DNA of 64,000 nt from Muribaculaceae bacterium (GCA_017546805.1 JAFYRT010000075.1:20104-84103), one strand, 5' to 3'; shown: positions 2,728 through 58,942, counted from the stretch's first letter. A program made the numbers and translations. The notes: generated by a model from the sequence alone, not told the origin.

Positions 2728-4773
2728 TTAATCGTTATAGGTATCCAATGCTGAGTAATCTTTTGAGTAACGCAACATTTGCTCGTCATACTCTTCGTTG
2801 TAAGTAACAGTAACGTCTGTAACCATTCCATTCTCATCCTCAACCAATGAGTATTTGGGATTGACGAATCCTTTGTAAGGAGCAAGATTTAATTTTTTGT
2901 AGCGAGCCAATACCTCTTTGTGTAGTTCAATATCAACTTTTACCGCATATTTCTCAACCAAAGCTTTACCTGCCTCGTAATCACCCTCTGATTTTATGCG
3001 TTGAACCTCAGCAAGAAGTTTTCCAAACAAGGCGCGAAGTTTGTCGTAATCGTTGATTTTTACATAGCTTTTTCCATCGATTTTCTCAATTGAAATTACG
3101 TTATCTTCAGCTCCGTTTTCCAAACACCATTTAGCAATAAGTTGACGGTTACGCATATGAGACTCTTCAATGTCATTACCCAACTCAATACGAGTTAATT
3201 GAGTCATCAAACCGTTCATTATATATGAGTAGTAGTTTGATTTGTAAGCATCTTCGTTTGGCAACAGGCCTAACTCAATGATTTTATCATCAGCCATATA
3301 GTACATTGCAAACAAATCGGCACGTGTCTCTTCTAATGTTGAAGCATATGCTTTCAAAGCATCAGAATCCACTCCTGGAAGAAGTTTTCCTGAACCGTGT
3401 CCAAGACACTCGTGAAGGTCTGTGTGTAGGTTGTCCGAAGCAAAGCCGTATTTGTTCATCAATTCGCGAGTAGGCTCATCAATAACAAACTCCTCTTTAA
3501 ATCCGTTACCCAAAGCAGCTTGATCGTATGCGTATGTGATGTTTTCGATAGTTACAGATTTTGAACCATAGTCACGACGAATCCAGTCTGCATTAGGTAG
3601 GTTTATACCAATAGGAGTGCTTGGGTAGCAATCTCCACCTAACATGGCAACAGTAATTACTTTTGCAGTAACACCTTTTACTGTCTCTTTTTTGAATCGG
3701 CTATCGATAGGAGAGTTGTCCTCGAACCATTGTGCATTTGCACTGATAGTCTCTGTGCGAGATGATGCTTCAACGTTTTTGAAGTTGATTGATGCTTCCC
3801 AACTTGCTTTCATGCCAAGAGGATCTCCGTAAACTTCAGTGAATCCGCAAATGAAATCTACATTACCTGTTAACTCTTGAACCCAAGCAACAGCGTACTC
3901 GTCAAATGTTTTAAGATCTCCTGTTTTGTTGAATTCTATTAGAAGGTCAATAACATTGCGTTGCTCGTCGTTTTCAGCAACACCTTTTGCCAATTCCAAC
4001 CAGTAAACAATGCGCTCAAGAGCTTTTGAATAGCGTCCACCTACTTTATATACCTCTTCGTAAATTTTACCGTCACGTTTAACCAAACGACTGTTTAATC
4101 CGTATGAGATTGGTTGGTTATCGTTAGGTTTACGCATTTTTGCATAAAAATCTTCCGCCTCTTTTTGAGTTACACCATCATAGTAGTTTCCTGCTGAAGT
4201 TTGAACCAAATCATATCCGGCAGCCAAGTTAATACGTTTAGGCATAACCTCTTTATCAAAGATAACAGGTGTCAATTCCGCAATTAGATTATCAACAGTT
4301 TCTCCCTCTTTTACAGGAAGTAAAGTTGGGTCTACAGCTTTAACTTGCTCTACGAAAAACTCTTGTGAGAATCCTGGAACAAATTTGTCAGCAGCATAGT
4401 GGTGGTGAATACCGTTTGAGAACCAAATGCGTTTTAGGTAAACAACAAATTCTTTGTAATCAGCACTCTCTTTGTCTCCGTTGTAATTTTGGTATACAGC
4501 CTCCAATGTGCGACGTATTGCAAGGTTGTATTTGCCATTTTGGTCGAAAAGAATATCACGTCCCTCTTGAGCAGCTTCAGTCAAATAATAGATATAAAGC
4601 TTTTGATTTAAAGACAATTCTTCAAATCCGGGGACTTGATAACGAAGAATTTGTAAGTCTGCAAATTTATCCACGTTGTAATTGAATTTAGGCTCATTCT
4701 CGGTTTTTGAGCAACTAACGAAACTCATACCGAAAAACAGAGCGGTTGTTGTGATTAAAAATAATTTTTTCAT
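2728..4773 (-). CDS. dipeptidyl-peptidase III (M49 family) lipoprotein
   Basis: 681-aa ORF with M49 zinc motifs HECLGHGSG (HExxGH) and EETRADL (EExRAE/D). Signal peptide with a lipobox-like FVSCS. Confidence 0.85.
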   Translation of the reverse strand: MKKLFLITTTALFFGMSFVSCSKTENEPKFNYNVDKFADLQILRYQVPGFEELSLNQKLYIYYLTEAAQEGRDILFDQNGKYNLAIRRTLEAVYQNYNGDKESADYKEFVVYLKRIWFSNGIHHHYAADKFVPGFSQEFFVEQVKAVDPTLLPVKEGETVDNLIAELTPVIFDKEVMPKRINLAAGYDLVQTSAGNYYDGVTQKEAEDFYAKMRKPNDNQPISYGLNSRLVKRDGKIYEEVYKVGGRYSKALERIVYWLELAKGVAENDEQRNVIDLLIEFNKTGDLKTFDEYAVAWVQELTGNVDFICGFTEVYGDPLGMKASWEASINFKNVEASSRTETISANAQWFEDNSPIDSRFKKETVKGVTAKVITVAMLGGDCYPSTPIGINLPNADWIRRDYGSKSVTIENITYAYDQAALGNGFKEEFVIDEPTRELMNKYGFASDNLHTDLHECLGHGSGKLLPGVDSDALKAYASTLEETRADLFAMYYMADDKIIELGLLPNEDAYKSNYYSYIMNGLMTQLTRIELGNDIEESHMRNRQLIAKWCLENGAEDNVISIEKIDGKSYVKINDYDKLRALFGKLLAEVQRIKSEGDYEAGKALVEKYAVKVDIELHKEVLARYKKLNLAPYKGFVNPKYSLVEDENGMVTDVTVTYNEEYDEQMLRYSKDYSALDTYND

Positions 4774-4799
4774 CTCCTATTTTATTTATTATTAATTGA

Positions 4800-45462: not shown

Positions 45463-45678
45463 ATGTCAGAAAAAGAGATGAATTCATACCGATTTGGCAC
45501 AGGACAAGAACCAACAGACGAAATGTTAAGCCAAATAATGAAAGAAGTTGCTCAAGAAGCTGTAGAAAGCAGAAAAGAAGTTGAAGCATTTCTTTTAAAA
45601 CAAATGTGTTTGAATATTGTCAAAAAACAAGAACAATGGGCTGACCGCATAAATAGCATTATCAATGAAAGAAACTAA
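45463..45678 (+). CDS. small acidic protein, putative antitoxin partner of the zeta-like ATPase
   Basis: 71-aa ORF that overlaps the downstream ATPase gene by 14 nt (45665-45678). No family recognised. Confidence 0.5.
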   Translation: MSEKEMNSYRFGTGQEPTDEMLSQIMKEVAQEAVESRKEVEAFLLKQMCLNIVKKQEQWADRINSIINERN

Positions 45679-46273
45679 TATTAAACCTGAGTTGATAATT
45701 ATTGCCGGGCCTAATGGATCAGGCAAGACATCAGTAACAAAGAAATTCTTACATCACGAATGGGCAGAAGGAACCACATATATAAATCCTGACGAGGTTG
45801 CTAATGATATATTCGGCGATTGGAACTCTAAAGAAGCTGTATTAAAAGCAGCTGATTATTGTGCCAAGTTAAGAGAAGATTGCTTGAAAAACAAACAAAG
45901 TTTTGTATTTGAAACAGTAATGTCTGCAGATGATAAAGTAGATTTTATATTAAGAGCAAAGGAAAATGGCTTTTTTATTCGCCTATTCTTTATATCTACA
46001 GATACTCCTATTATAAACGCATCAAGAATAGCAAATCGAGTAATGAAAGGAGGGCATGACGTGCCTATTTCCAAAGTAATTTCAAGATATTATAAATCAA
46101 TAGAAAATTGCAAGACAATATCATCTGTTGTTGATAGACTATATATATACGACAACTCTATAGACGGAGAAGAAGCAAAACTACTGTTTCGCTTAACAAA
46201 CGGAACTCTTGCAAAAAAATATGTAGCAGATATTCCCGAATGGGCAAAGCCAATACTCCCCGATAAAAATTAA
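45665..46273 (+). CDS. zeta-toxin-like / COG4185-type P-loop kinase
   Basis: 202-aa ORF with Walker A IIAGPNGSGKTS near the N-terminus. Size and layout match the zeta_toxin/AAA_33-like kinase family. Confidence 0.65.
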   Translation: MKETNIKPELIIIAGPNGSGKTSVTKKFLHHEWAEGTTYINPDEVANDIFGDWNSKEAVLKAADYCAKLREDCLKNKQSFVFETVMSADDKVDFILRAKENGFFIRLFFISTDTPIINASRIANRVMKGGHDVPISKVISRYYKSIENCKTISSVVDRLYIYDNSIDGEEAKLLFRLTNGTLAKKYVADIPEWAKPILPDKN

Positions 46274-46296
46274 TAACATAATTAAATATTACAAAA

Positions 46297-46327
46297 CCGT
46301 TCTATCTTAAAGGTAGAGCGGTTTTTT
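46297..46327 (+). terminator. intrinsic terminator after the zeta-like gene
   Basis: 10-bp stem ccgttctatc (46297-46306) / ggtagagcgg (46312-46321) with two G-U pairs, followed by TTTTTT (46322-46327). Confidence 0.7.
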
Positions 46328-46374
46328 GTTGTATAAATAATTAGAATAATTTAGGAATATTCATTTAAAAGAAT

Positions 46375-46382
46375 TAATTTCG
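46375..46382 (+). promoter_or_regulatory. promoter-like -7 box variant TAATTTCG(CA)
   Basis: Same TAnnTTCGCA variant as the boxes upstream of dapA, the GH2 gene and purU. It sits at the 5' edge of the GC-rich ORF-free segment. Confidence 0.35.
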
Positions 46383-46385
46383 CAT

Positions 46386-46730
46386 TGTCCCATGCTGATA
46401 GTCCTATTCTTTAGGGATAGAGAGGGAGGGTGGGACATGACATATAAAAAGGCGTTTACTACGCTTTGGTTTTGACGGTTTAAGAACTTCGCAACTTCAA
46501 TTAACTGTTTGTCAAAAACAAAGCAACGTGAATGTCCCGAGGGTGTGTTATATACATACCTCTAATGCTGTATAGCCATAGGTGCATCCATACTTATGGA
46601 ACATTCAGCGTAGTGGTAGTGTTATACATATCAGCGTGGGCTTTGGCGTTGCTCGTTTCGACAAACAGGGGCAATGCGAAGGCCTTTAAACCGTGAAGCG
46701 AGCGACAGTGCAGGGCTTCACGCTTTTTTT
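46386..46730 (+). ncRNA. candidate structured ncRNA or cis-regulatory leader upstream of the defence operon (unknown class)
   Basis: No ORF of 60 aa or more on either strand. About 45% GC by hand count (156/350), against AT-rich flanking spacers. Has a promoter-like box at the 5' edge, several candidate helices and an intrinsic terminator (46692-46730) at the 3' end. Confidence 0.35.
46692..46730 (+). terminator. intrinsic terminator closing the GC-rich segment
   Basis: Perfect 8-bp stem cgtgaagc (46692-46699) / gcttcacg (46715-46722), a 15-nt loop, then C + TTTTTTT (46724-46730). Confidence 0.6.
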
Positions 46731-46818
46731 ATGTCTACAAATTAATATTCTAAAGAAAATAGGTTATATGAAGTCCGTAACCAATAAGAAGTCATACAAA
46801 AACTGACTCACAAGGTTA

Positions 46819-49800
46819 ATGGAATTAATAGACAATGTAAATAAAACACTTAAAGAAGATCTCATCGCAGAGATTAAATCTGGTAGTAAAATATCTATAG
46901 CGGCTTCGTGTTTTTCAATATTTGCATTCCAAGAATTGAAAGAGCAACTAAAAGATATTGAAGAACTCCGTTTTATTTTTACATCGCCAACTTTCGTAGC
47001 AGAGAAAGCAAGTAAACAAAAGAGAGAGTTTTATATTCCTCGACTTAATCGTGAACGCAACCTTTATGGTTCAGAATTTGAAGTAAAACTTCGTAACGAA
47101 CTTTCTCAACGAGCAATCGCAAAAGAGTGTGCCGAATGGATTAAAGAAAAGGTATGTTTTAAGTCTAATCGCACAAATGAAAATATGATGGGATTCATTA
47201 ATGTTGATAATACCAACTATATGCCTATCAATGGTTTTACTACAGTAGATATAGGATGCGAAAGAGGCAACAATGCTTATAGTTTTGTTCAAAAGACAGA
47301 AGCACCACTTTCTAAACATTTCCTTGACCTATTTGAACAACTTTGGAATGATAGTTCTCGTATGCAAGTTGTTACCGAAGAAATACTTGATAATATCACA
47401 AATGCATATAAAGAGAATGCACCTGATTTCCTTTACTTTATTACTCTATATAACATCTTCAATGAATTTCTCGAAGATATATCAGAAGATGTATTACCAA
47501 ACGAAGCTACAGGGTTCAAGAATAGTATCATTTGGAGCAAACTTTACAACTTTCAAAAAGATGCTTGCCTTGCAATAATAAATAAACTTGAGAAATATAA
47601 TGGATGTATTCTCGCAGATAGTGTAGGTTTGGGTAAGACATTTACCGCACTTTCTGTTATCAAATATTACGAAAATCGTAATAAAACAGTTCTTGTACTT
47701 TGCCCTAAAAAACTCAATGATAACTGGATTACATATAATAACAATTATATAAACAATCCTATAGTTGGAGATCGCTTACGATATGATGTATTTTTCCATA
47801 CCGATTTATCTCGTAGCGCAGGTTATTCTAACGGACGTGACTTATCGCACATAAATTGGAGCAATTACGACCTTGTAGTAATTGATGAAAGCCATAACTT
47901 CCGTAATGGAGGCAAAGTTACAACCGACGAAAACGATGAGAATCCTCGTGAAAATCGTTATTTGCAATTGATGAATAAGATTATTCGCAAAGGTGTAAAG
48001 ACAAAAGTACTTATGCTTTCAGCAACACCAGTGAATAATCGTTTTAACGACCTTAAAAATCAAATTGCACTCGCTTATGAGGGAGAAAGTGATAAAATAG
48101 ATAAATTACTCAATACAAAAAGTAGCATTGATGATATTTTTCGTCAAGCACAGCGAGAATATAATATTTGGTCAAAACTCCCTTCAGAAGAACGCACAAC
48201 CAAGCGTCTGCTTGAACGATTAAGTTTCGATTTCTTTGAGGTACTTGATAGCGTAACTATTGCTCGAAGCCGCAAGCATATTGAGCAATATTACGATACT
48301 ACTGACATTGGAAAATTTCCAACAAGATTATCTCCAATTTCACGCAGGCCACACCTTACAGACCTTGACAGTGCAATTAATTACAATGATATATACTTAT
48401 TGTTAGAAGGACTTAATCTTGCAATATATACTCCGTCTGACTTTATTTTACCAAGCAGACTTGATAAGTATATGAACATTACAAGTGAGGAAGATTACTC
48501 AAACCTCACAATGAAAGGTCGTGAGCGTGGTATTCGCAAATTAATGAGTATCAATCTACTCAAACGACTTGAAAGTTCGGTAAACTCTTTCCGTCTATCG
48601 CTTAATCGTATTCTCGGATTTATATCATCAACCGTTGCTAAAATCGACACTATAAGTCATGGCGGGGGTAGTGTATATGTTGATGAACACGATTTTGAGG
48701 GACTTGACCTTGAGGAACAAGAAGATATATTCATCGGAGGCAAAAAGAGTAAAATTGCTCTCGAAGATATGGATTATGTTGCTTGGAAACAATATCTTGA
48801 CAAGGATATAGAAACACTTAATTTGTTGCTTCTTATGCTTGCAGACATAACTCCTGAGCATGATAGCAAACTACAACAATTAATTGACGACTTAAAATAC
48901 AAATTTGCTAATCCTATAAATGAAAATAATAAGAAGGTAATTATATTTACAGCATTCTCAGACACTGCTGAATATCTTTACGAAAACCTTGCAGATAGTA
49001 TTAAAGAGAGATGCAATTTAAATACAGCAATAGTTACTGGTAGTTCTGATGCTAAAAGTACAATACGTCTTCGCAATCGTCAAAAGCTCGACTTTAATAC
49101 TCTGCTCACTCTTTTCTCCCCTATATCTAAAGAGAAAGCGGCTTTATTACCTGATATAAGTGAAGAAATAGATGTATTAATAGCAACTGATTGTATAAGT
49201 GAAGGTCAGAACTTGCAAGACTGCGACTTCCTTATCAATTATGATATCCATTGGAACCCAGTGCGTATTATTCAAAGATTTGGAAGGATTGACCGCATAG
49301 GTTCTCGCAACGAAGTTATACAACTCGTTAACTACTGGCCCGATATGGACTTGGACGAATACATTGACCTCAAAGGACGTGTTGAAGCTCGTATGAAAGT
49401 GTCTGTAATGACCAGTACGGGCGATGACAACCCCATTTCTCCTGAAGAAAAGGGCGATTTGGAGTATCGTCGTGAGCAACTTAAACGCTTGCAAAGCGAA
49501 GTTGTGGATATTGAGGAGATGAACACCGGCATCAGTATCATGGACTTGGGATTGAATGAGTTCCGTTTAGATTTGCTTGCCTATATGCAAGATAATCCGA
49601 ACATTGAATATACCCCATTCGGTTTGCATGCTGTAGTACCTGCTACAGAAGGTTGTCCTCCAGGAGTGGTGTATGTACTGAAGAATCGCAACAACAATGT
49701 AAATATCGATCGCAAGAACCGTTTACATCCATTCTATTTGGTCTATATCTCTGATGATAGCGAAGTTGTTGTCAATCACCTATCTCCAAAAGAGTTGCTC

Positions 49801-50058
49801 GACAGACTCCGTTACCTATGCAAAGGAAAGTCAAGCCCGAATAAGGAACTATGCAAGGAGTTCAACCGCATTACCCGAGACGGAAAGAACATGCAACACT
49901 ATTCCGAGCTGTTGGGTGATGCAATTGCGTCTATCATCGACGTAAAAGAGGAAAGCGACATTGATTCTTTCCTCGGCGGTGCCACTGGCTCACTCTTTAC
50001 AGAAGAGATTAAGGGACTTGACGATTTTGAATTGATATGTTTTTTGGTAATCAAGTAA
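46819..50058 (+). CDS. SNF2-family helicase/translocase with ~230-aa uncharacterised N-terminal domain
   Basis: 1079-aa ORF with motif I LADSVGLGKTF, motif II VVIDESHNFRN, motif III LMLSATPVNN, motif V/VI region TDCISEGQNLQ and RIIQRFGRIDRIGS. Confidence 0.85.
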   Translation: MELIDNVNKTLKEDLIAEIKSGSKISIAASCFSIFAFQELKEQLKDIEELRFIFTSPTFVAEKASKQKREFYIPRLNRERNLYGSEFEVKLRNELSQRAIAKECAEWIKEKVCFKSNRTNENMMGFINVDNTNYMPINGFTTVDIGCERGNNAYSFVQKTEAPLSKHFLDLFEQLWNDSSRMQVVTEEILDNITNAYKENAPDFLYFITLYNIFNEFLEDISEDVLPNEATGFKNSIIWSKLYNFQKDACLAIINKLEKYNGCILADSVGLGKTFTALSVIKYYENRNKTVLVLCPKKLNDNWITYNNNYINNPIVGDRLRYDVFFHTDLSRSAGYSNGRDLSHINWSNYDLVVIDESHNFRNGGKVTTDENDENPRENRYLQLMNKIIRKGVKTKVLMLSATPVNNRFNDLKNQIALAYEGESDKIDKLLNTKSSIDDIFRQAQREYNIWSKLPSEERTTKRLLERLSFDFFEVLDSVTIARSRKHIEQYYDTTDIGKFPTRLSPISRRPHLTDLDSAINYNDIYLLLEGLNLAIYTPSDFILPSRLDKYMNITSEEDYSNLTMKGRERGIRKLMSINLLKRLESSVNSFRLSLNRILGFISSTVAKIDTISHGGGSVYVDEHDFEGLDLEEQEDIFIGGKKSKIALEDMDYVAWKQYLDKDIETLNLLLLMLADITPEHDSKLQQLIDDLKYKFANPINENNKKVIIFTAFSDTAEYLYENLADSIKERCNLNTAIVTGSSDAKSTIRLRNRQKLDFNTLLTLFSPISKEKAALLPDISEEIDVLIATDCISEGQNLQDCDFLINYDIHWNPVRIIQRFGRIDRIGSRNEVIQLVNYWPDMDLDEYIDLKGRVEARMKVSVMTSTGDDNPISPEEKGDLEYRREQLKRLQSEVVDIEEMNTGISIMDLGLNEFRLDLLAYMQDNPNIEYTPFGLHAVVPATEGCPPGVVYVLKNRNNNVNIDRKNRLHPFYLVYISDDSEVVVNHLSPKELLDRLRYLCKGKSSPNKELCKEFNRITRDGKNMQHYSELLGDAIASIIDVKEESDIDSFLGGATGSLFTEEIKGLDDFELICFLVIK

Positions 50059-50060
50059 CT

Positions 50061-50660
50061 ATGTACGGCTTACCACAGACAACAGAAGTTCGAAAGCAGT
50101 TGCCCAAGAAAGCAATTTATGCAAAGTTTGAGTTGAAGTCCTCGCAACGTGAGAGTTTCGATGCAGACATTGCACGCATAGACATTGTGGCGGTTGTTTC
50201 AACCTCTACTGTACCAGCACTGAATGTCGGAACTGAGGTAAAGGAATTTTATCTGCTTGCCGTACAGCTGAAACGCAAGGGGTACGACAGTAAGAATATC
50301 GCACTGCTAACCAAACTTATTCCGCAACGGATGGTGTTTGCCCTTCAATTTGAGGAGCAGATACAGTTTGCCATCTATCACACAAAACTTATTTCATCGG
50401 CTTGGCAAACTACAGAAGAGGCCACGCTTCCATTGTCAGGATTAAACCTCGATGTTGTGTGGGAGAATATAATCGCCACGATTGGTAATATCACCATTGT
50501 TGGTGGTAATAACATTGTTGAGCAGATTGCAGAGGATGATACACACGCCAAACTGATGAAGCAGATAGAACAGTTGGAGAAGAAGGTTCGTGCCGAGAAG
50601 CAACCTCGCAAGAAGTTGGAACTATTTGAGAAATTGAAGGGGTTGAAGAAAAATTTGTAA
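50061..50660 (+). CDS. DUF4391-like protein
   Basis: The ORF track gives 50037..50660. I prefer the ATG at 50061 (MYGLPQTTEVRKQLPKKAIYAKF...), 2 nt after the SNF2 stop. The N-terminal pattern matches my memory of DUF4391, which typically follows SNF2 helicase genes. Confidence 0.6.
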   Translation: MYGLPQTTEVRKQLPKKAIYAKFELKSSQRESFDADIARIDIVAVVSTSTVPALNVGTEVKEFYLLAVQLKRKGYDSKNIALLTKLIPQRMVFALQFEEQIQFAIYHTKLISSAWQTTEEATLPLSGLNLDVVWENIIATIGNITIVGGNNIVEQIAEDDTHAKLMKQIEQLEKKVRAEKQPRKKLELFEKLKGLKKNL

Positions 50661-50664
50661 TAAT

Positions 50665-51624
50665 ATGTCCAACATAAGCAATACTTTAATTGAAAGAGAA
50701 GGTGTAGCGGCTGTTCAACAGTGTTTAACACGAATGGGGTGGATTTTTAGAGAGAATTCTCACACTGATTATGGAATAGACGGAGATGTAGAGCAAGTAA
50801 TGGATGATAAACCCACCAATTTACATATTGCTCTTCAAATAAAATCAGGACCTTCATACTTAAAAGAAAATAAGGATGGGAATATTACATTTTATATTGA
50901 TGAGTGGCATTACAAATATTGGTTGCAATCAGACAGACCTGTTCTTATTTTATTTTATGACAATGTAAATGATAGGGTTATTTGGGAACAAGTCAAACTC
51001 CGTAATATACAAACTACCAACTCACAATATAAGATTGTAATAAATCCTACAAAGATTTTGAATAAAGATTGTTTGCTAGAACTTAATGACATTATAGCGA
51101 CACACCAACCTCAGCACTTTTACGAATTGACAGACGAGTATAACGATTTCGAGTTTTCTCATTATTGTTACCAAGAACTAAATAGGTCTATTGGTGAATC
51201 GTGTAATGATGTGCTACACTTTAGGGAGGGCATTAAACACCAAGGCGTATCTCTCAATTCGGCTATTATAAAATCGCTAATAAATGATTTAGCAGACAGG
51301 ACACAAAGTCGCACGACAAGGGAATATGAATGGCTACACAAAGGATGTTGGTATTTGCAAACAATGGCGCAGCACATTGACCCATTTTTATTTACGATGC
51401 TGGTAGAGTGCGTTGATGAATATATCACTATAATCGACTACAATACTACCATTTGGCAAGGAATAGTTAATGATATATCAAAACTGTTCCACCCAAACGT
51501 TCCTAATGACATCCAACAATGTGCAGGAAGATGTATCACAATTATAGAAGATAGATTTGCCACATACGAATTAGTCAAAGGAGAGTATCAAAAGTGTATT
51601 AGAATAACAAAGGAACGAAAATAA
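50665..51624 (+). CDS. DUF4365 (PD-(D/E)xK nuclease-like) domain protein with unknown C-terminal domain
   Basis: 319-aa ORF. The N-terminal ~110 aa, EREGVAAVQQCL...TDYGIDGDVEQV...ALQIKSG, fits a D..(D/E)xK restriction-endonuclease-like core. The C-terminal ~200 aa carry no recognisable motif. Confidence 0.6.
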   Translation: MSNISNTLIEREGVAAVQQCLTRMGWIFRENSHTDYGIDGDVEQVMDDKPTNLHIALQIKSGPSYLKENKDGNITFYIDEWHYKYWLQSDRPVLILFYDNVNDRVIWEQVKLRNIQTTNSQYKIVINPTKILNKDCLLELNDIIATHQPQHFYELTDEYNDFEFSHYCYQELNRSIGESCNDVLHFREGIKHQGVSLNSAIIKSLINDLADRTQSRTTREYEWLHKGCWYLQTMAQHIDPFLFTMLVECVDEYITIIDYNTTIWQGIVNDISKLFHPNVPNDIQQCAGRCITIIEDRFATYELVKGEYQKCIRITKERK

Positions 51625-51639
51625 AACTAACCAAATAAT

Positions 51640-53556
51640 ATGGAAAAACTAAAAATGCAGACTGCTGATATGGCAGAGCGAAATATCAAGATGTTGGGAC
51701 AGATGTTCCCGAACTGCTTGACCGAGACCATCAATGCCGACGGTAAGTTGGTGCGTGCTATCGACTTCGATAAGTTGCGTCAAGAGTTGGCGTGTGAGGT
51801 TGTCGAGGGAGCCGATGAGCGTTATCAATTCACTTGGCCAGATAAGCGTGCTGCTATCCGTTTGGCAAATGCACCTATCAACAAAACCCTTCGTCCTTGT
51901 CGTGAGGAGAGTGTTGATTTCGACAACACCGAGAACCTCTATATCGAGGGCGACAACTTGGAGGTGCTGAAGTTGCTCCGTGAGAACTACTTGGGTAAGG
52001 TGAAGATGATTTACATCGATCCTCCATACAACACTGGTAACGACTTTGTCTATAACGATGACTTCGCACAGGGTAAGGCGGAGTTTGAGGCACAGAGCGG
52101 TCTGTTTGACGAGGAGGGACGCCGTATGGCAGACCCTATGGTGCAGAATACCGAGAGCAATGGTCGTTTCCATACCGATTGGCTCAATATGATTTATCCT
52201 CGCCTAAAAGTTGCCAAAGACTTACTCACTGACGATGGCGTTATCTTTATATCAATTGATGATAATGAGGTAAGAAACCTTCGCAATGTGTGTGATGAAG
52301 TTTTTGGAGAACAAAACTTTATAGCAAATCTAATATGGCAAAAGAAGTTTTCAAGAGCAAATGATGCTAAATATTTTTCTACAATGCACGACCACATATT
52401 ATGCTATTGTAAAGTTAATATTTACACATCTGATAACGGATGGCAAATTGGACTATTGCCAAGAGGAGAAGAAATACCAAGTGGTTATGCAAATCCCGAT
52501 AATGACCCAAGAGGAGTTTGGACATCTGTTATCTTATCAGCAAAGTCGGGGTCAGAAAGTCTTGTTTATGAAATAGAAACGCCAAGCGGACGCAAAGTTC
52601 TTCCTCCAAGTGGAAGATATTGGTGCTGTAATAAAGAGACTTTTGTAAAATGGAAAAATGACGGTCGTATTTGGTTTGGAGCAGACGGAAATGGAACTCC
52701 TCGCAAGAAAACATTTTTATCAGAGGTTCAAGATGGATTAAGACCAAATACAATTATTCTTCATTCTGAAGGTGGCCATAATCAAGAAGGCAAGCAGGAA
52801 ATGAAAGCACTTTTTGATGATATAGGAGTATTTGATGGTCCGAAACCGATAAGATTACTTCGTTATTTATCAACTATCGCAAATCTGAATGAAGATTCCA
52901 TTGTATTAGATTTCTTCTCTGGCTCTGCAACAACGGCACACGCTGTAATGCAGTTAAATGCCGAAGACGGTGGTAATCGCAAGTTTATTATGGTGCAACT
53001 ACCCGAAAAGACCGATGAGAAAAGCGAGGCTTATAAGGCTGGCTACAAGAACATCTGCGAGATAGGCAAAGAGCGTATCCGTCGTGCAGGACGCAAGATT
53101 AAGGAGGAGAACGCAACGAAGGAGGGTATCGAGCGACTCGATGTGGGCTTCCGTGTATTGAAACTCGATGAGTCGAATATGGCAGATGTATATTATACCC
53201 CTGCCGAGACTCCAATACAGACCACATTGAACTTTGATGCGTTGGTGGATAATATCCGTGAGGGACGCACAGCCGAAGACCTCTTGTTCCAAGTATTGCC
53301 TGAATGCAACTTACCTCTATCGAGCAAGATAGAGATACGAGAGATACACGGCAAGAAGGTGTTTATTGTGGAGGATGGCTACTTGATGGCTTGCTTCGAC
53401 AACGACATCAACGATGCTGTAATCACCGCCATAGCGAAGGAGAAACCATACTACTTTGTGATGTGCGATCGCTCGATTGCATCCGACAGCGTCGCCGACA
53501 ACTTCGACCAAATCTTCAACGCTTACAGCAAGGATACCGTTAGGAGGATATTGTAA
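51640..53556 (+). CDS. mod: type III-like (beta-class) DNA methyltransferase, Mod subunit
   Basis: 638-aa ORF with motif IV IYIDPPYNTGNDF preceding motif I VLDFFSGSATTAHA (beta permutation). The N-terminal FTWPDKR...TLRP...NLYIEGDNLEVLKLL is typical of type III Mod proteins. Confidence 0.85.
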   Translation: MEKLKMQTADMAERNIKMLGQMFPNCLTETINADGKLVRAIDFDKLRQELACEVVEGADERYQFTWPDKRAAIRLANAPINKTLRPCREESVDFDNTENLYIEGDNLEVLKLLRENYLGKVKMIYIDPPYNTGNDFVYNDDFAQGKAEFEAQSGLFDEEGRRMADPMVQNTESNGRFHTDWLNMIYPRLKVAKDLLTDDGVIFISIDDNEVRNLRNVCDEVFGEQNFIANLIWQKKFSRANDAKYFSTMHDHILCYCKVNIYTSDNGWQIGLLPRGEEIPSGYANPDNDPRGVWTSVILSAKSGSESLVYEIETPSGRKVLPPSGRYWCCNKETFVKWKNDGRIWFGADGNGTPRKKTFLSEVQDGLRPNTIILHSEGGHNQEGKQEMKALFDDIGVFDGPKPIRLLRYLSTIANLNEDSIVLDFFSGSATTAHAVMQLNAEDGGNRKFIMVQLPEKTDEKSEAYKAGYKNICEIGKERIRRAGRKIKEENATKEGIERLDVGFRVLKLDESNMADVYYTPAETPIQTTLNFDALVDNIREGRTAEDLLFQVLPECNLPLSSKIEIREIHGKKVFIVEDGYLMACFDNDINDAVITAIAKEKPYYFVMCDRSIASDSVADNFDQIFNAYSKDTVRRIL

Positions 53557-54749
53557 TGGAAATTAATCCAGACAACATAAAAGAGATTATCCAAAATAAT
53601 TGCCATAATATGGCTTTTATTATTGGCAATGGCATACATTACCAATACAAGGATTGTGACATTTCGTGGAATGATTTATTGATATCATTATGGGAAGAGT
53701 GTTTTGGTGAGAAATTAGAAATTCCCCAAGGTATATCAACTACTGAATTTTTTGACATTATAGAAATGAATTTCTATAAGAATAATAACTATGTGTCTAA
53801 TCCAAATAAAATTAAAAGTCATACAGTAAAGATAACAGACCTGCAAGATGTTAAATCTGATGATTTAGTGCAAATAATGTTTAAGTTGGCTGGCAAATCA
53901 TCGAATACAAACATTGTAAATAATAATGCAATAGAAGAGTTTCGTGATAAGCACGAAAAATTTGTAGAAAATTGCAGAAAGTGGTGTGAGGCAAATATTG
54001 AAGATACTGCAAATTTAACAAATGAGAATTGTGTTTTTCAAGTTCTAGATGTATTATCAAATGAAACAAAAAAGCAAATTGTAACAAATGCTATCAAGAA
54101 AACTGTTGCTAAGAAATTCCCATCTAAAGAAAGATGTAATTTGGATAAATGTATTCAAGGAATTAAGAAGTTAAATACACCAATTTTAACTACTAATTTT
54201 GATACATATATAAGTGAATCCATAGAAAAAACTAAACTAAAAATATTGAAAAACGGACAATATAAATTTACAGATTTCTATCCTTGGAATATGTGCTATA
54301 GTGATAAGAGTCTAGAAAATCCGTTAGATGGTTTTGCAGTATGGCATATTAATGGTATAGTTAAATATCCTAGAAGTATTAGACTCGGGTTAAGCGACTA
54401 TATGGGGTGTGTGGAGCGTGCTCGCAAAATGATACAGGGGACAAACTTGAACGAGTATTTTAGCGGCAAAAATCAAGTAGGTTGGAAAGGGTATAATACT
54501 TGGCTTCATATAATATTCAATAAATCGCTTTTTATATTTGGTCTAGGACTTGAAGAGAATGAAGTTTTTTTAAGATGGCTACTTATTCAGCGTGCTAAAT
54601 ACTTTAGAATGTATAATAAGACTTTTGGAGGTTGGTATGTAGATAAGGAAATAAAACCAGGAAAACGATTCTTCTTGGAACAATTAGGTTTTGAGGTAAT
54701 TGATATTTCCGATTATAAAACATTGTATCAAGCATTAGAAACACTATGA
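53556..54749 (+). CDS. SIR2-like (SIR2_2 family) protein, putative NADase effector
   Basis: 397-aa ORF with AFIIGNGIH (GxG), ILTTNFDTYISE (TTNxD), VWHINGIVKYPRSIRLGLSDY (HxxG...DY) and LFIFGLGLEENEVFLRWLL. The order and spacing match the SIR2_2 domain layout. Confidence 0.65.
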   Translation: MEINPDNIKEIIQNNCHNMAFIIGNGIHYQYKDCDISWNDLLISLWEECFGEKLEIPQGISTTEFFDIIEMNFYKNNNYVSNPNKIKSHTVKITDLQDVKSDDLVQIMFKLAGKSSNTNIVNNNAIEEFRDKHEKFVENCRKWCEANIEDTANLTNENCVFQVLDVLSNETKKQIVTNAIKKTVAKKFPSKERCNLDKCIQGIKKLNTPILTTNFDTYISESIEKTKLKILKNGQYKFTDFYPWNMCYSDKSLENPLDGFAVWHINGIVKYPRSIRLGLSDYMGCVERARKMIQGTNLNEYFSGKNQVGWKGYNTWLHIIFNKSLFIFGLGLEENEVFLRWLLIQRAKYFRMYNKTFGGWYVDKEIKPGKRFFLEQLGFEVIDISDYKTLYQALETL

Positions 54750-57700
54750 AGTTCAAATTTAAGATACAGCAATATCAGACCGATGCGGTAGAACGCACAG
54801 TGGAGGTATTCGAAGGACAGCCATCTATGGATAGTCTGACCTACCGCCGTGACCTCGGTAAGCGTGCTGCGACTTTGTATGATGACGAGTTGGAGATGGG
54901 CTACCGAAATAGCGAGATACAGTTGCTCCCCAAAGAGATACTCGCAAACATCCGTAAGGCACAGGCAGCAGGAGATATCAAGTTATCCGATTCGCTCGTG
55001 CCCAGCATAGGTGCGTGCAGTCTCGATATCGAGATGGAGACAGGAACGGGTAAGACCTATGTGTATATCAAGACGATGTTTGAGTTGAACAAGCGTTATG
55101 GTTGGAGCAAGTTTATCATTGTTGTGCCAAGTATCGCTATCCGTGAGGGTGTTGGCAAGAGTTTTGCTATGCTCGAAGACCATTTTATGGAACACTACGG
55201 CAAGAAGGCTCGTTGGTTTATCTATGACAGTAGCCGTTTGAAGAGTCTTGATGACTTTTCGAGCGATGCGGGTATCAATGTGATGATAATAAACACCCAA
55301 GCATTTGCAACGTCGCTCAAAGAGGGTGCAAAGAACAAGGAGAGCCGCATTATCTACTCAAAGCGTGATGACTTTGCAAGTCGCCGTCCGATTGATGTGA
55401 TTGCAGCGAACCGTCCTATTATCATTATGGATGAACCACAGAAGATGGAGGGAGAGGCTACACAGACCGCTCTTAAACGCTTTATGCCGTTGTTCATCCT
55501 TAACTACTCGGCAACCCATAAGACCAAGCACAACACCGTATATGCACTTGATGCACTTGATGCCTACAACAAGAAACTCGTAAAGAAGATTCAGGTTAAG
55601 GGCTTTGAGGTCAAGAACCTGAAAGGTGCATCAAGTTATCTATACATTGACAGCATCATCCTATCGAAGAACGACCCACCGATGGTTAAAATCGACCTTG
55701 AAATGAACACAGCGTCAGGCATACGCCGTAAGTCTATGAAGTTCGGTAAGGGAGATAAACTATATAGTGTTAGTGGTCTTAAACAATACGAGGGCTTCGA
55801 TATTGCAGAGATTAACCCATATACAGACACCGTTACATTTCTCAATGGCATAACACTCCGCAAGGGTGAAGTATTTGGAGATAGCAGCGAATTGGCAATG
55901 CAGCGTGTTCAGATTCGTGAGACCATCGTTTCGCACTTTGAGAAGGAGCGTGAATTGTTTGCACGAGGCATTAAGACACTATCGTTGTTCTTTATCGACG
56001 AGGTGGCGAAATACAAGAGTTATAATGCCGAAGGTGAGATTGAACAGGGTGTGTTCTGGAAGATGTTTGAGGAGGAGTATATCAGTATCCTCAATGAAAA
56101 TCTTTCGTTGTTTGACTCCGACTATCAGCAGTATCTACGCCGATTTGATGTGGGCGAAATACATAATGGCTACTTCTCAATCGACAAGAAGGGTCGTTCG
56201 GTAAATAGTGAAGTGAAGCGAGGTCGTGATACCTCGGACGATATATCGGCATACGACCTTATCTTGAAGAACAAGGAGCGTCTATTGAGTTTTGATGAAC
56301 CTACACGATTCATCTTCTCGCATTCAGCACTCCGTGAGGGTTGGGATAACCCAAATGTATTCCAAATCTGCACGCTCCGACACGCTAACTCTGCAACAGC
56401 CAAGCGTCAGGAGGTAGGTCGAGGTTTGCGTATCTGCGTGGATGCAAGTGGTAATCGTATGGACTTTGAGACTCTCGGCGAGAATATCCACGAGTTGAAC
56501 AAACTGACCGTGATTGCCAATGAGAGTTACAGCGACTTCGTAGGCGACTTGCAGCGTGAGACCCGTGATGTGCTCCGCGACCGTCCTACAAAGGCTGATG
56601 AGGCATACTTCACAGGCAAACTCGTATTTGTGGGTGATGACAAGCGTGCAATCACCGCAGAAGAGGCTAATTCTATCCGTGCCTACCTTTGGGATAATGA
56701 CTATATCGACGACAAGGGACAGGTTACAGAGCAGTATAAGACCGATTTGGCAGAAGGCAACCTTGCACCGATGTCCAAGAAATTGGCTCCTATGGCTGAC
56801 AGCATACAGTTATTGATTCGTGCATTGTATGATGATTCTGTGGCTATTGATTCAATGTTTGAGGATGGTAATGCTACCGTTGTCAAGGAGAATAAATTGA
56901 ACGATAACTTTGCCAAGGAGGAGTTCCAAGCACTCTGGAAGGAGATTAACCACAAATACGCCTACACAGTTCATTACAACAGCAATGAGTTGGTAGAAAA
57001 GGCTGTGTTGAACATAAACGCCAACCTCGAAGTTAATCAGTTGCGTTATGTAGTGGTTACGGGCGAGCAGGATAGTGTTGATGCCTTTGGCAGCACAACC
57101 TCTACCTCGAAGCGTGTAGGTGCAGTATCAACATCAACCGTTAAATATGACCTTGTAGGTGAGATTGCAAGAGGTGCAACATTGACCCGTAGAACGGTTG
57201 TAGAGATATTGAAGAAATTGAGGGGTGAGAAGTTGGCGATGTTTCAGAATAACCCAGAGGAGTTCATCCGCAATGTGGTTAAATTGATTAAGGAGCAGAA
57301 GGCTACAATGATTGTGGAGCACATATCATACAACCAGATTGAGGGTGGCTATGATAGCAGCATATTTACCCAAGAAAAGCAAAATCAATCATTCAGCAAG
57401 GCATACTCATCGAAGAAGCACATTATGGACTATGTATTCAGCGATTCGGATGGCGAGCGTAAGTTTGCATCGGCTCTCGATGGAGCATCAGAAGTATGCG
57501 TGTATGCGAAGTTGCCTCGTTCGTTCCAAATCCCTACACCAGTAGGCAACTATGCTCCTGACTGGGCGATTGCTTTAAATGAAGGTGTAGTTAAGCATAT
57601 ATTCTTTGTTGCAGAAACAAAAGGTTCGCTTGATAGTTTAGAACTTAGAGGTGTTGAAAAAGCAAAAACTGAATGTGCTAAAAAACTATTCAATCAGTTA

Positions 57701-57775
57701 TCTACTTCTTCAGTCAAATATGGTGTAGTTGACAAGTTTGAAAGTCTTTACGATGTGATTAATTCAATTGACTAA
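54746..57775 (+). CDS. res: type III restriction enzyme Res subunit (SF2 helicase + C-terminal PD-(D/E)xK nuclease)
   Basis: 1009-aa ORF with motif I METGTGKTYVY, motif II IIMDEPQKM, motif VI-like QEVGRGLRI and a C-terminal nuclease motif YAPDWAI...FFVAETKGS. Confidence 0.85.
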   Translation: MKFKFKIQQYQTDAVERTVEVFEGQPSMDSLTYRRDLGKRAATLYDDELEMGYRNSEIQLLPKEILANIRKAQAAGDIKLSDSLVPSIGACSLDIEMETGTGKTYVYIKTMFELNKRYGWSKFIIVVPSIAIREGVGKSFAMLEDHFMEHYGKKARWFIYDSSRLKSLDDFSSDAGINVMIINTQAFATSLKEGAKNKESRIIYSKRDDFASRRPIDVIAANRPIIIMDEPQKMEGEATQTALKRFMPLFILNYSATHKTKHNTVYALDALDAYNKKLVKKIQVKGFEVKNLKGASSYLYIDSIILSKNDPPMVKIDLEMNTASGIRRKSMKFGKGDKLYSVSGLKQYEGFDIAEINPYTDTVTFLNGITLRKGEVFGDSSELAMQRVQIRETIVSHFEKERELFARGIKTLSLFFIDEVAKYKSYNAEGEIEQGVFWKMFEEEYISILNENLSLFDSDYQQYLRRFDVGEIHNGYFSIDKKGRSVNSEVKRGRDTSDDISAYDLILKNKERLLSFDEPTRFIFSHSALREGWDNPNVFQICTLRHANSATAKRQEVGRGLRICVDASGNRMDFETLGENIHELNKLTVIANESYSDFVGDLQRETRDVLRDRPTKADEAYFTGKLVFVGDDKRAITAEEANSIRAYLWDNDYIDDKGQVTEQYKTDLAEGNLAPMSKKLAPMADSIQLLIRALYDDSVAIDSMFEDGNATVVKENKLNDNFAKEEFQALWKEINHKYAYTVHYNSNELVEKAVLNINANLEVNQLRYVVVTGEQDSVDAFGSTTSTSKRVGAVSTSTVKYDLVGEIARGATLTRRTVVEILKKLRGEKLAMFQNNPEEFIRNVVKLIKEQKATMIVEHISYNQIEGGYDSSIFTQEKQNQSFSKAYSSKKHIMDYVFSDSDGERKFASALDGASEVCVYAKLPRSFQIPTPVGNYAPDWAIALNEGVVKHIFFVAETKGSLDSLELRGVEKAKTECAKKLFNQLSTSSVKYGVVDKFESLYDVINSID

Positions 57776-58029: not shown

Positions 58030-58044
58030 TTTTATTATCTTCGC
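58030..58044 (+). promoter_or_regulatory. promoter-like 15-mer TTTTATTATCTTCGC upstream of purU
   Basis: Identical to the 15-mers at 36557 and 38047. It ends 23 nt before the purU ATG. Confidence 0.45.
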
Positions 58045-58066
58045 AAATTGAATTAAATATATCGAT

Positions 58067-58942
58067 ATGCAAGAGAAAAAAACTAACGGTAAAAGTGCTA
58101 TTTTGTTGATGCACTGTCCCGACCAACCGGGTATTATTGCCGTTATGACTGAATTTATTACAAAAAACGGCGGTAATATTCTTTACCTTGACCAATATGT
58201 TGATCGCAGCAACAAGATATTTTTTATGCGATTAGAGTGGGATTTAGAAAACTTCATTATCCCTCAAGATAAGATAGAGGAGTTCTTTGGTACTTTATAC
58301 GGCCAAAAATATAATATGAACTTTACTCTTTATTTCAGCGACCAAAAGCCTAAAATGGCAATTTTTGTTTCAAAGATGTCGCACTGTATTTACGACCTTT
58401 TGGCTCGTTATGCAGCAGGGGAGTGGGATGTTGAAATTCCTATCATCATTAGTAACCACCCCGACATGGAGGTTGTTGCTAAACAGTTTGGTATTGAATA
58501 TGCTTATTTTCCTATAACTAAAGAGAACAAAGCCGAACAAGAGGCTAAAGAGATTGCGTTGCTTAATGAGAAAGGTGTTACATTTATTGTTCTTGCTCGT
58601 TACATGCAAATTCTTTCGCCAGAGTTTATTGATTTGTATCCTAACAAGATTATCAATATTCACCACTCATTCCTTCCTGCTTTCGTAGGTGCTAAACCTT
58701 ACCATGCAGCCTTTGAACGTGGTGTTAAATTGATTGGTGCTACAAGCCACTATGTTACAAGCGACTTGGATGCGGGTCCAATTATTGAACAAGATATTTC
58801 GCGTATCTCTCACAAGGATACTATCGATAATCTTATTGGTAAGGGTAGGGATTTGGAGAAGATTGTTCTTTCTCGTGCCGTTGCTAAACACATTGAAAGA
58901 AAGATTCTTGTTTACAAAAACAAAACTATTGTTTTTAACTAA
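58067..58942 (+). CDS. purU: formyltetrahydrofolate deformylase
   Basis: 291-aa ORF with an N-terminal ACT-like domain (LLMHCPDQPGIIAVMTEFI) and a formyltransferase core (IINIHHSFLPAF, SHYVTSDLDAGPII). Confidence 0.9.
   Translation: MQEKKTNGKSAILLMHCPDQPGIIAVMTEFITKNGGNILYLDQYVDRSNKIFFMRLEWDLENFIIPQDKIEEFFGTLYGQKYNMNFTLYFSDQKPKMAIFVSKMSHCIYDLLARYAAGEWDVEIPIIISNHPDMEVVAKQFGIEYAYFPITKENKAEQEAKEIALLNEKGVTFIVLARYMQILSPEFIDLYPNKIINIHHSFLPAFVGAKPYHAAFERGVKLIGATSHYVTSDLDAGPIIEQDISRISHKDTIDNLIGKGRDLEKIVLSRAVAKHIERKILVYKNKTIVFN

Follow-up and report, generated by a model that had tools for sequence, protein, structure and literature searches.

A structured RNA family of Bacteroidales that precedes exchangeable gene cassettes, with one copy ahead of a type III restriction-modification operon in a Muribaculaceae bacterium

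We analysed a 64,000-nt stretch of DNA from a Muribaculaceae bacterium (GCA_017546805.1, JAFYRT010000075.1:20104-84103; hereafter the window), in which a preliminary description had singled out a GC-rich spacer in front of a defence operon headed by an SNF2 gene. The plus-strand segment 46376-46736 is one copy of a structured RNA family with members of 290-345 nt. Rather than being an accessory of the SNF2 operon, the RNA belongs to a widespread Bacteroidales family, found at about 150 genome and metagenome loci in total, that stands ahead of exchangeable gene cassettes. As to its function, we infer that it serves as a promoter-proximal structured leader gating read-through into the genes behind it, a reading to which we give a probability of roughly 0.45.

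The element fills most of a 545-bp spacer (46274-46818) between a zeta-toxin-like gene and the SNF2 gene. As had been claimed, the spacer contains no open reading frame (ORF) of 60 aa or more; the longest has 54 aa (46532-46696). An earlier hand count of 156 G+C among the 350 nt of 46381-46730 (44.6%) proved exact, with 20.6% in the upstream flank (46274-46375), 28% in the downstream flank (46737-46818), and 36.6% for the whole window. The plus strand of the element folds to -141.4 kcal/mol (z = -7.5), which 0 of 100 shuffles equalled, and the minus strand gives z = -4.9. The ORF-free stretch is a genuine structured plus-strand RNA, beyond what chance would produce. Our data support the outline first proposed, namely a discrete structured RNA or long leader of ~350 nt reaching from a promoter-like box to a terminator-like hairpin.

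Like the preliminary description, we could assign this RNA to no known class. Rfam 15 returned no gathering-score match in the 64-kb window, and relaxing the search to E values up to 10 over 46200-46900 brought up only noise (miRNA, snoRNA, and a flanking terminator). There was likewise no match over the B. finegoldii copy, and the sole match in 18 related loci was a tRNA elsewhere. ARAGORN found no tRNA or tmRNA. 6S RNA, a ~185-nt rod with a central bubble, was rejected, as no Rfam 6S match was found and the element departs from it in length and in its three-arm fold; moreover, a separate 6S RNA has been described in B. thetaiotaomicron (PMC7366714). The literature consulted (by sequence, for BT_2678, in Bacteroides small RNA (sRNA) atlases, and in a human-microbiome structured-RNA catalogue, and covering, for PMC8040213, the first 200 of its 408 supplement files) contained no description of the element, which may nevertheless have been listed anonymously before. 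A cluster look-up with the B. thetaiotaomicron locus tags returned none. As far as searched, the family is uncatalogued.

The first lead to the family was the single match from a plasmid BLAST, weak and partial, a chromosomal-type B. finegoldii copy sharing the 3' block only. A phage BLAST gave no match, and viral contigs gave 4 matches only; the element is therefore not phage-borne. Genome sequences were then searched with a 19-base pattern from the 3' block, which yielded 51 loci, 49 of them real copies. Their hosts are Bacteroides, Parabacteroides, Alistipes/Rikenellaceae, Paraprevotella, Alloprevotella, Segatella, and Ca. Caccoplasma, with 1-3 copies per genome. Alignment of the copies showed that homology extends beyond the 3' block to the whole element. 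A second pattern, from the 5' core alone, recovered at least 120 metagenome loci, of which 104 are complete and 90 distinct, in 63 clusters below 93% identity. The exact P1 strand used in the first search occurs in only 6 of the 104 complete copies, and the 5'-anchored sample therefore removes the ascertainment bias of the first pattern.

Element length is 333-344 nt in the subfamily of the window copy (subfamily A; Caccoplasma, Alloprevotella) and 290-317 nt in the majority of the remaining genome copies (Bacteroides and relatives), with short variants of 229-257 nt (e.g. L020, L041). Homology to the window starts at 46376 in the relatives (46278 in locus L028) and ends at 46736 (in one, 46749). 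The window copy has every family element in order: -7 box, GRCGTTTAC core, H2, K1-K3, P5 (GRTRTGT/ACATATC), P1/P2, and U-run.

Structure assignment was complicated by the inconsistent nested folds that RNAalifold alone returned, because the structure is pseudoknotted or bistable. We replaced it with an unbiased column-pair scan for stacked, compensated pairs and tested the named helices on 117 aligned sequences against shuffles and slid partners. Pairs were counted on 62 sequences below 86% identity, the source of the main paired percentages and changed-pair counts given below. In this set 86.3% of 4711 cells are paired, versus 78.3% in shuffles and 40-50% with slid partners. Changes on both sides occur in 45 pairs, and 0 of 500 shuffles reached any of the five measures. 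Covariation had been left to be checked for the helices first proposed by eye; several helices of the model described below are backed by compensatory changes.

In the resulting model, a 5' hairpin (S1) is followed by a helix (P0) that closes a junction of three arms, A, C, and B, and loop L3 of arm A pairs with loop L2 of arm B. Arm A (46451-46536) consists of H2, P3, L3, and a conserved AGCAAC box (46522-27). H2 (GGCGTTT 46451-57 / GAATGTC 46530-36) is 98.6% paired (98.6-98.9% across tests), with one pair changed on both sides and a G-C to A-U exchange between subfamilies. P3 (46464-73 / 46514-23) is 82.6% paired (80-83%), with 4 pairs changed on both sides. Arm C (46542-46632) consists of P5 (GGTGTGT 46542-48 / ACATATC 46626-32; 94.8% paired, 92-95% across tests; 1 pair changed on both sides) closing a lineage-specific hairpin insert. 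The 5' strand of P5 varies solely by A/G opposite U, the interior of the arm is not conserved beyond the close lineage, and in the short variants L020 and L041 both P5 strands are joined directly. Arm B (46633-46724) is built from P1 (AGCGTGGG 46633-40 / TTCACGCT 46717-24; 98.8% paired, 98.7-98.8% across tests; 2 pairs changed on both sides), P2 (TTGCTCGTTTC 46649-59 / GAAGCGAGCGA 46695-705; 98.8%, 98.8-99%; 5 pairs), and loop L2 (46660-94).

The loops carry the strongest covariation. L3 (34 nt; 46475-46513) provides the 5' strands of K1 (ACGGTTTAA), K2 (CTTCGCA), and K3 (CTGTTTGTC), and L2 provides their 3' strands. K1 (46475-83 / 46686-94) is 98% paired versus 73% in shuffles, with both-side changes in 9 of 9 pairs. 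K2 (46487-93 / 46675-81) is 91% paired (91-93% across tests; both-side changes in 6 of 7 pairs) and K3 (46505-13 / 46660-68) 80% (77-80%; 9 of 9). Together, 24 of the 25 pairs in K1-K3 show compensatory changes.

These assignments sorted the helices first proposed by eye, all of which exist as complementary segments in the sequence and some of which are kept in relatives. The helix 46386-92 / 46431-37 corresponds to S1 and is supported by the alignment of close relatives. The helix 46470-76 / 46511-17 is the top of P3 and is supported in part, but its suggested extension (cggtttaa/ttaactg) is displaced by K1. Two others fell to shuffle level: 46458-65 / 46607-14 (54% paired) competes with covariation-backed partners, and 46530-35 / 46601-06 (39%) with H2. 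The pairing of 46379-87 with 46672-80 was wrong, as TGCGAAG pairs with CTTCGCA at 46487-93 (K2). A hairpin at 46539-48 / 46554-62 is conserved, but inside the subfamily only and in competition with P5, and one at 46576-81 / 46594-99 does exist inside the arm C insert but is lineage-specific. An idea of our own, that TACATATC is a single-stranded seed and the 3' domain a separate sRNA, was dropped: TACATATC is the 3' strand of P5, and the 5'-anchored sample attributed its fixity to ascertainment by the first pattern.

At the 5' end, S1 (46386-46437) has the outer stem GTCCC 46387-91 / GGGAC 46431-35 and a lineage-specific interior. Among 11 close relatives its outer pairs are kept through G-U changes and its inner pairs are compensated (RNAalifold). 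The 5' strand of P0, GACATATAAAAAG (46438-46450), pairs with 46724-46735 in constrained and free folds and so closes the junction. Column-based counting fails for P0 (40% paired) because of indels, and we therefore compared linker:tail duplexes without an alignment in 117 copies. Cognate pairs give -9.05 kcal/mol versus -7.70 for non-cognate pairs, a value that 0 of 2000 permutations matched; TATACAG/CTGTATA and TATACATAAA/TTTGTGTATA illustrate the pairing clearly.

The 3' boundary of the conserved module (46692-46736) contains the terminator-like hairpin CGTGAAGC 46692-99 / GCTTCACG 46715-22, a T-run (46724-31), and the tail ATGTC (46731-35), which is the 3' strand of P0. The terminator-like structure reported earlier is thus present, at 46692-46731, and its hairpin is 82% paired across the family; a simple terminator scan overlooked it solely on account of the 15-nt loop. 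Either this hairpin or the long P1+P2 arm, followed by 8 T, is predicted to form an intrinsic terminator.

Arm A is the reverse complement of arm B, with the U-run directly 3' of arm B, and the duplex designated X:Y is more stable for cognate (-45.4 kcal/mol) than for non-cognate pairs (-31.5 kcal/mol) in an alignment-free comparison. A fully nested rod is therefore an iso-energetic alternative to the three-arm fold (-142.6 versus -112.1 plus -31.3 kcal/mol for the kissing contacts). The rod-specific pairing AGCAAC 46522-27 : GTTGCT 46648-53 is 99% paired with 4 compensated pairs, though it overlaps P2, and both states therefore seem to be under selection. In this respect the RNA resembles CopA-CopT and RNAI-RNAII, whose two long hairpins match each other in both stem and loop, and where contact can begin at the loops and extend to a four-way junction or a full duplex. 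Here, in contrast, a single transcript contains both hairpins, separated by 95 nt, and the stems within the arms (H2, P1, P2) and the contacts between them are both kept by covariation.

The same contacts could form between molecules, giving dimers or larger assemblies and an RNA scaffold of the kind reported for other large ornate bacterial RNAs. Covariation is blind to pairing in cis versus in trans, and 21-24 bp between two closed 34-nt loops would be topologically strained in cis. Against this, the rod offers a cis solution of equal energy, and Rfam shows no similarity to ROOL, GOLLD, OLE, or raiA; we regard the idea as improbable. The element does share traits with ROOL, GOLLD, OLE, raiA, and HEARO, which are large, rich in covariation, long-range or pseudoknotted, and often found near mobile or variable genes. 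It differs in matching none of them by sequence or structure in Rfam 15, in being shorter, and in being confined to Bacteroidales as sampled.

Long imperfect inverted repeats such as arms A and B could also point to a DNA-level element, either the inverted repeat of an invertible promoter or a recombinase site. Bacteroides invertons typically control surface-protein and restriction-modification (R-M) genes, the same classes that follow the RNA here. However, mismatches in the helices are overwhelmingly G:U rather than A:C on the plus strand (219:1 in P1, 263:7 in P2, and 238:0 in H2), which fixes the strand and excludes a DNA-level repeat. The middle segment has the same orientation in all full-length copies (about 150 loci, 117 aligned), with no flipped copy; no internal TAnnTTTG box was seen on reading the segment; the promoter lies outside the repeat, with the B. 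thetaiotaomicron transcription start site (TSS) at the 5' end; and the non-repeat parts S1, P5, and P0 covary too. We rejected this explanation on the G:U bias and hold it to be very improbable.

The RNA has its own Bacteroidetes-type promoter. A TAnnTTTR box stands 65-83 nt 5' of the core box GRCGTTTAC in 37 of the 49 genome copies, and homology to more distant relatives starts at 46376. The TAATTTCGCA box noted earlier is present at 46375-46384. The type to which it had been assigned, TAnnTTCGCA, does recur (4 in the window) but is not enriched (2.8 expected); the box is meaningful because relatives have the canonical Bacteroidetes TAnnTTTG -7 box, of which it is a variant, at the same place. 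In B. thetaiotaomicron VPI-5482 the copy lies at about 3336815-3336513 (-) of NC_004663, and differential RNA-seq placed a TSS at 3336815(-) (PMC7366714, supplements). This is the predicted first base of the RNA, 12 nt past the start of the box.

In that genome the RNA has been annotated in pieces. 'sORF_00233, 5'UTR-derived', with a coverage of 3839, covers arm A, and the coding sequence BT_2678 (134 aa) overlaps the 3' half (PMC7366714); BT_2678 has been counted among PM1-promoter genes (PMC10994844). The ANNOgesic terminator table gives a coverage drop for the BT_2678 transcript at 3336036-76, which is ~740-780 nt downstream of the TSS; the transcript thus appears to extend ~450 nt beyond arm B. 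These annotations, together with the 54-aa ORF of the window, would favour a decayed or small protein-coding gene. The family argues otherwise: ATG positions are scattered, the sole recurrent ATG lies within the conserved H2 strand, and ORFs of at least 8 codons span anything from 8 to 57 codons. Nor was the decayed gene that the preliminary description had allowed for borne out, as the substitution pattern fits a base-paired RNA. We rejected a coding function on the ORF scatter and give it next to no weight; BT_2678, a 134-aa hypothetical protein by annotation, is probably not a protein gene.

Two further observations concern this locus. BT_2677 as annotated is antisense to a conserved 161-aa ORF with a signal peptide (B. 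thetaiotaomicron; loci L005, L006) and is probably another erroneous gene call. The TSS source-data lists of PMC7366714 also include position 3336605, without stating its strand. If on the minus strand, it would fall on the first base of P1 (RNA position 211) and would hint at a separate or processed ~95-nt species equal to arm B.

Having established the RNA and its promoter, we compared the genes behind it, which fall into 43 clusters. The classes include a conserved 155-163-aa signal-peptide protein followed by an outer-membrane (OM) beta-barrel protein (Bacteroides, Parabacteroides, Alistipes), HKD-SNF2 proteins (at least 16 loci besides that of the window), type II methyltransferase-like proteins (10 + 5), PDC-S31/DUF2971 (8), fimbrillin-like, Big_2, and BspA-LRR proteins, and several unknowns. 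In the window the cassette (46819-57775, plus strand; Pfam, PADLOC) begins 82 nt past the RNA (spacer 46737-46818) and encodes HKD+Snf2 (PADLOC C3a139), DUF4391, a DUF4365/Aga-REase-like protein, type III Mod, a SIR2-like protein, and type III Res. Together these genes make up a type III R-M system accompanied by three or four accessory genes.

Behind the conserved RNA the co-oriented genes vary by exchange, and the RNA is independent of any one cassette. The preliminary description had pictured the RNA as travelling with the SNF2 cassette; the reverse holds, with the RNA as the conserved unit and the cassette as the changing part. In L028, the RNA is 97% identical to that of the window, both flanks are unalignable, and the downstream HKD-SNF2 protein is 26% identical. 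Checking co-occurrence with the SNF2 locus, as had been suggested, showed that the RNA is not specific to this operon: most copies adjoin unrelated genes.

An RNA component dedicated to the SNF2 / type III R-M defence system, comparable to a retron RNA, ToxI, or a guide RNA, would account for the 16 or more further copies directly 5' of HKD-SNF2 genes and for others 5' of methyltransferase or PDC-S31 genes. Yet the SNF2 proteins are only 26-33% identical to that of the window while the accompanying RNAs are 75-97% identical, on which we rejected this explanation, and most copies, the one at the syntenic Bacteroides locus among them, are followed by OM beta-barrel, fimbrillin-like, Big_2, or LRR proteins. 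Near the element we saw neither a reverse transcriptase gene nor a repeat array. We consider such a role very unlikely. Retron msr-msd, ToxI, and CRISPR/dCas12f guides were each set aside, since their linked genes or repeats were not seen beside the element and most copies lack defence genes. A dCas12f guide was further rejected on its description, in which a scaffold with a 3' guide lies beside rpoE-dcas12f genes in Flavobacteriia.

Among 112 distinct downstream contexts, 103 (92%) are co-oriented with the RNA (binomial P = 1.5e-8 against 0.7). About half of the downstream genes begin 40-130 nt past the RNA; counted from the T-run, the next ORF is at most 130 nt away in 74 of 139 loci, with a mode of 40-80 nt, and a TAnnTTTR box occurs in only 6 of 52 distinct short spacers. 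Our reading of the RNA as a leader in cis is built on this co-orientation, the short spacers without a promoter box, the covariation of the tail past the U-run, the compensated competing pairing, and the read-through in B. thetaiotaomicron. Arm B, once formed, would act as an intrinsic terminator and yield a short RNA. The alternative, arm A paired with arm B, would compete with the base of P2 and the terminator hairpin; this pairing may begin at the loop-loop contacts and extend to AGCAAC:GTTGCT. RNA polymerase would then read into the downstream cassette, here the HKD-SNF2 / type III R-M operon, and in the read-through transcript the tail past the U-run would pair back to the 5' linker as P0. 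That this post-U-run sequence covaries with the linker indicates that read-through transcripts are under selection. Modelled energies and pairings suggest the mutually exclusive states expected of an attenuator, namely AGCAAC:GTTGCT overlapping P2 together with iso-energetic global folds.

The element resembles attenuators and riboswitch platforms (trp- and pyr-type, T-box) in being promoter-proximal and noncoding, in ending with a hairpin and U-run before co-oriented genes, and in having a compensated competing pairing, AGCAAC:GTTGCT, that overlaps a terminator arm. Unlike them, it has no conserved leader peptide or recognisable ligand- or tRNA-binding core, its downstream genes are functionally unrelated, its strongest contact is loop-to-loop (1:4), and it is much larger (about 345 nt). 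A riboswitch was rejected because the downstream genes are not coherent (HKD-SNF2, methyltransferases, PDC-S31, fimbrillin-like, Big_2, LRR, and OM beta-barrel), and a leader peptide because ATGs are scattered and ORFs not positionally conserved.

Several points weigh against the leader reading. Termination and read-through at 46724-31 are predictions in this organism, and, because the U-run belongs to P0, its resemblance to a terminator could be partly coincidental. Downstream genes are functionally heterogeneous, unlike those of riboswitches; no sensor element or ligand pocket was identified with the tools used, and no leader-peptide ORF is positionally conserved across the family. In 9 of the 112 contexts the downstream gene is convergent and the RNA is intact. 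Covariation is strongest in K1 and K2, a contact of the 1:4 type that would be superfluous in a plain attenuator, and the architecture is more elaborate than that of known attenuators and fits a stand-alone RNA equally. Finally, the absence of -7 boxes from the spacers was judged with one consensus.

The main rival is a stand-alone noncoding RNA gene, trans-acting or structural, with its own promoter and terminator, bordering a hot spot of recombination or insertion where defence and surface cassettes accumulate, similar to those at tRNA or tmRNA genes. Subfamily A has a strong hairpin with a run of 7-8 U, homology ends sharply at 46736, the flanks of L028 are unalignable on both sides, and genomes carry 1-3 copies. 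The elaborate, pseudoknotted architecture, the intact copies with convergent downstream genes, an IS110-family insertion exactly where P1 meets the U-run in L007 (L083 shows the same junction), and the high B. thetaiotaomicron coverage are in agreement with this. It accounts poorly for the 92% co-orientation, the short spacers mostly without a promoter box, the covariation of tail and linker, and the ~450 nt of transcript beyond arm B. In addition, no integrase or att-like repeat was seen, and the 3'-end motifs occur only once in the window. We therefore hold a stand-alone gene to be less probable than a leader, though a serious competitor. Compared with tRNA/tmRNA island anchors, the element likewise combines a conserved RNA gene with a variable, defence-rich 3' side and, in some copies, an IS110-family insertion at the 3' end. 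It differs in having no tRNA-like fold (ARAGORN), no integrase or duplicated 3' end among the genes examined, and co-oriented cassettes that start 40-90 nt after the RNA.

A more speculative version, which we consider doubtful, makes the promoter and RNA module a conserved, integron-like docking and expression platform. Defence and surface-protein cassettes would be swapped behind it by recombination, and strand exchange between arms A and B, possibly intermolecular, would be a signal-driven read-through switch opened by a cellular or phage-derived signal.

If our account of the family is correct, gut Bacteroidales carry an abundant, highly conserved RNA of ~300-345 nt that lies outside the catalogues and is annotated as a hypothetical protein in a model species. 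Its anatomy, two mutually complementary arms with pairing loops, is unusual, and it heads gene classes that decide phage and host interactions (restriction, other defence, fimbriae, and surface proteins). To the best of our knowledge, Bacteroides lacks Hfq and classical attenuation systems. The RNA would thus bear on the control of horizontally acquired cassettes in Bacteroides and on cassette swapping at fixed chromosomal sites.

The 3' end of the RNA coincides with several breakpoints. In L007 (Bacteroides sp. KFT8), an IS110-family transposase gene (PF01548 + PF02371) lies at about 3700-4780 on the opposite strand, inserted directly after ...TTCCCACG, at the P1/U-run boundary. The junction CCCACG|TATTCTATG also occurs in the unrelated metagenome copy L083, and the conserved 3' end of the RNA therefore seems to serve as an IS110 target. 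In L113, L157, and L091 the sequence CACGCTT continues with GAACC... in place of the U-run and then with unrelated DNA, which in L157 and L091 carries an opposite-strand gene (554 aa in L157); this looks like a further breakpoint at this position, left by insertion or recombination. Five copies (L071, L085, L148, L154, L162) are truncated or disrupted, with homology breaking within arm C or arm B (in L148, for example, after CGGCGTGAG).

Spacers past the RNA contain recurrent motifs. Bacteroides-type loci (for example L054, L005, and L042) share a second conserved motif, GGGAGTC-N-GGGGGACAC, about 40-60 nt past the RNA, in a 400-nt spacer before the next gene where some annotations put a 78-81-aa ORF; it may be part of a further noncoding domain. 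A small hairpin, GCGGTTA-nnGTAGCCCT-TAACCGC, recurs in the spacers of L058, L069, L090, L095, L096, L109, and L129, just 5' of the first ORF of HKD-SNF2 or methyltransferase cassettes, and is not obvious in the window spacer.

Around the window copy, the zeta-toxin-like gene (45665-46273; PF06414) overlaps a 71-aa ORF (45463-45678) by 14 nt. The ORF has no family match, and the pair shows a toxin-antitoxin layout directly 5' of the RNA module. An intrinsic terminator of the zeta-toxin-like gene (46293-46325, plus strand; terminator scan) is kept along with the RNA module in the two closest relatives: L028 homology to the window begins at 46278, and L010 homology spans the 46293-46325 hairpin. 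Within the cassette, the stops and starts of the six genes overlap or nearly abut, and the SIR2-like protein (397 aa) has a weak SIR2_2 match. Just past the defence operon, a TATCTTCGCA box at 58036-58045 lies 31 nt 5' of an ORF at 58067; it is probably a sign of the next promoter and of where the variable region ends on the right.

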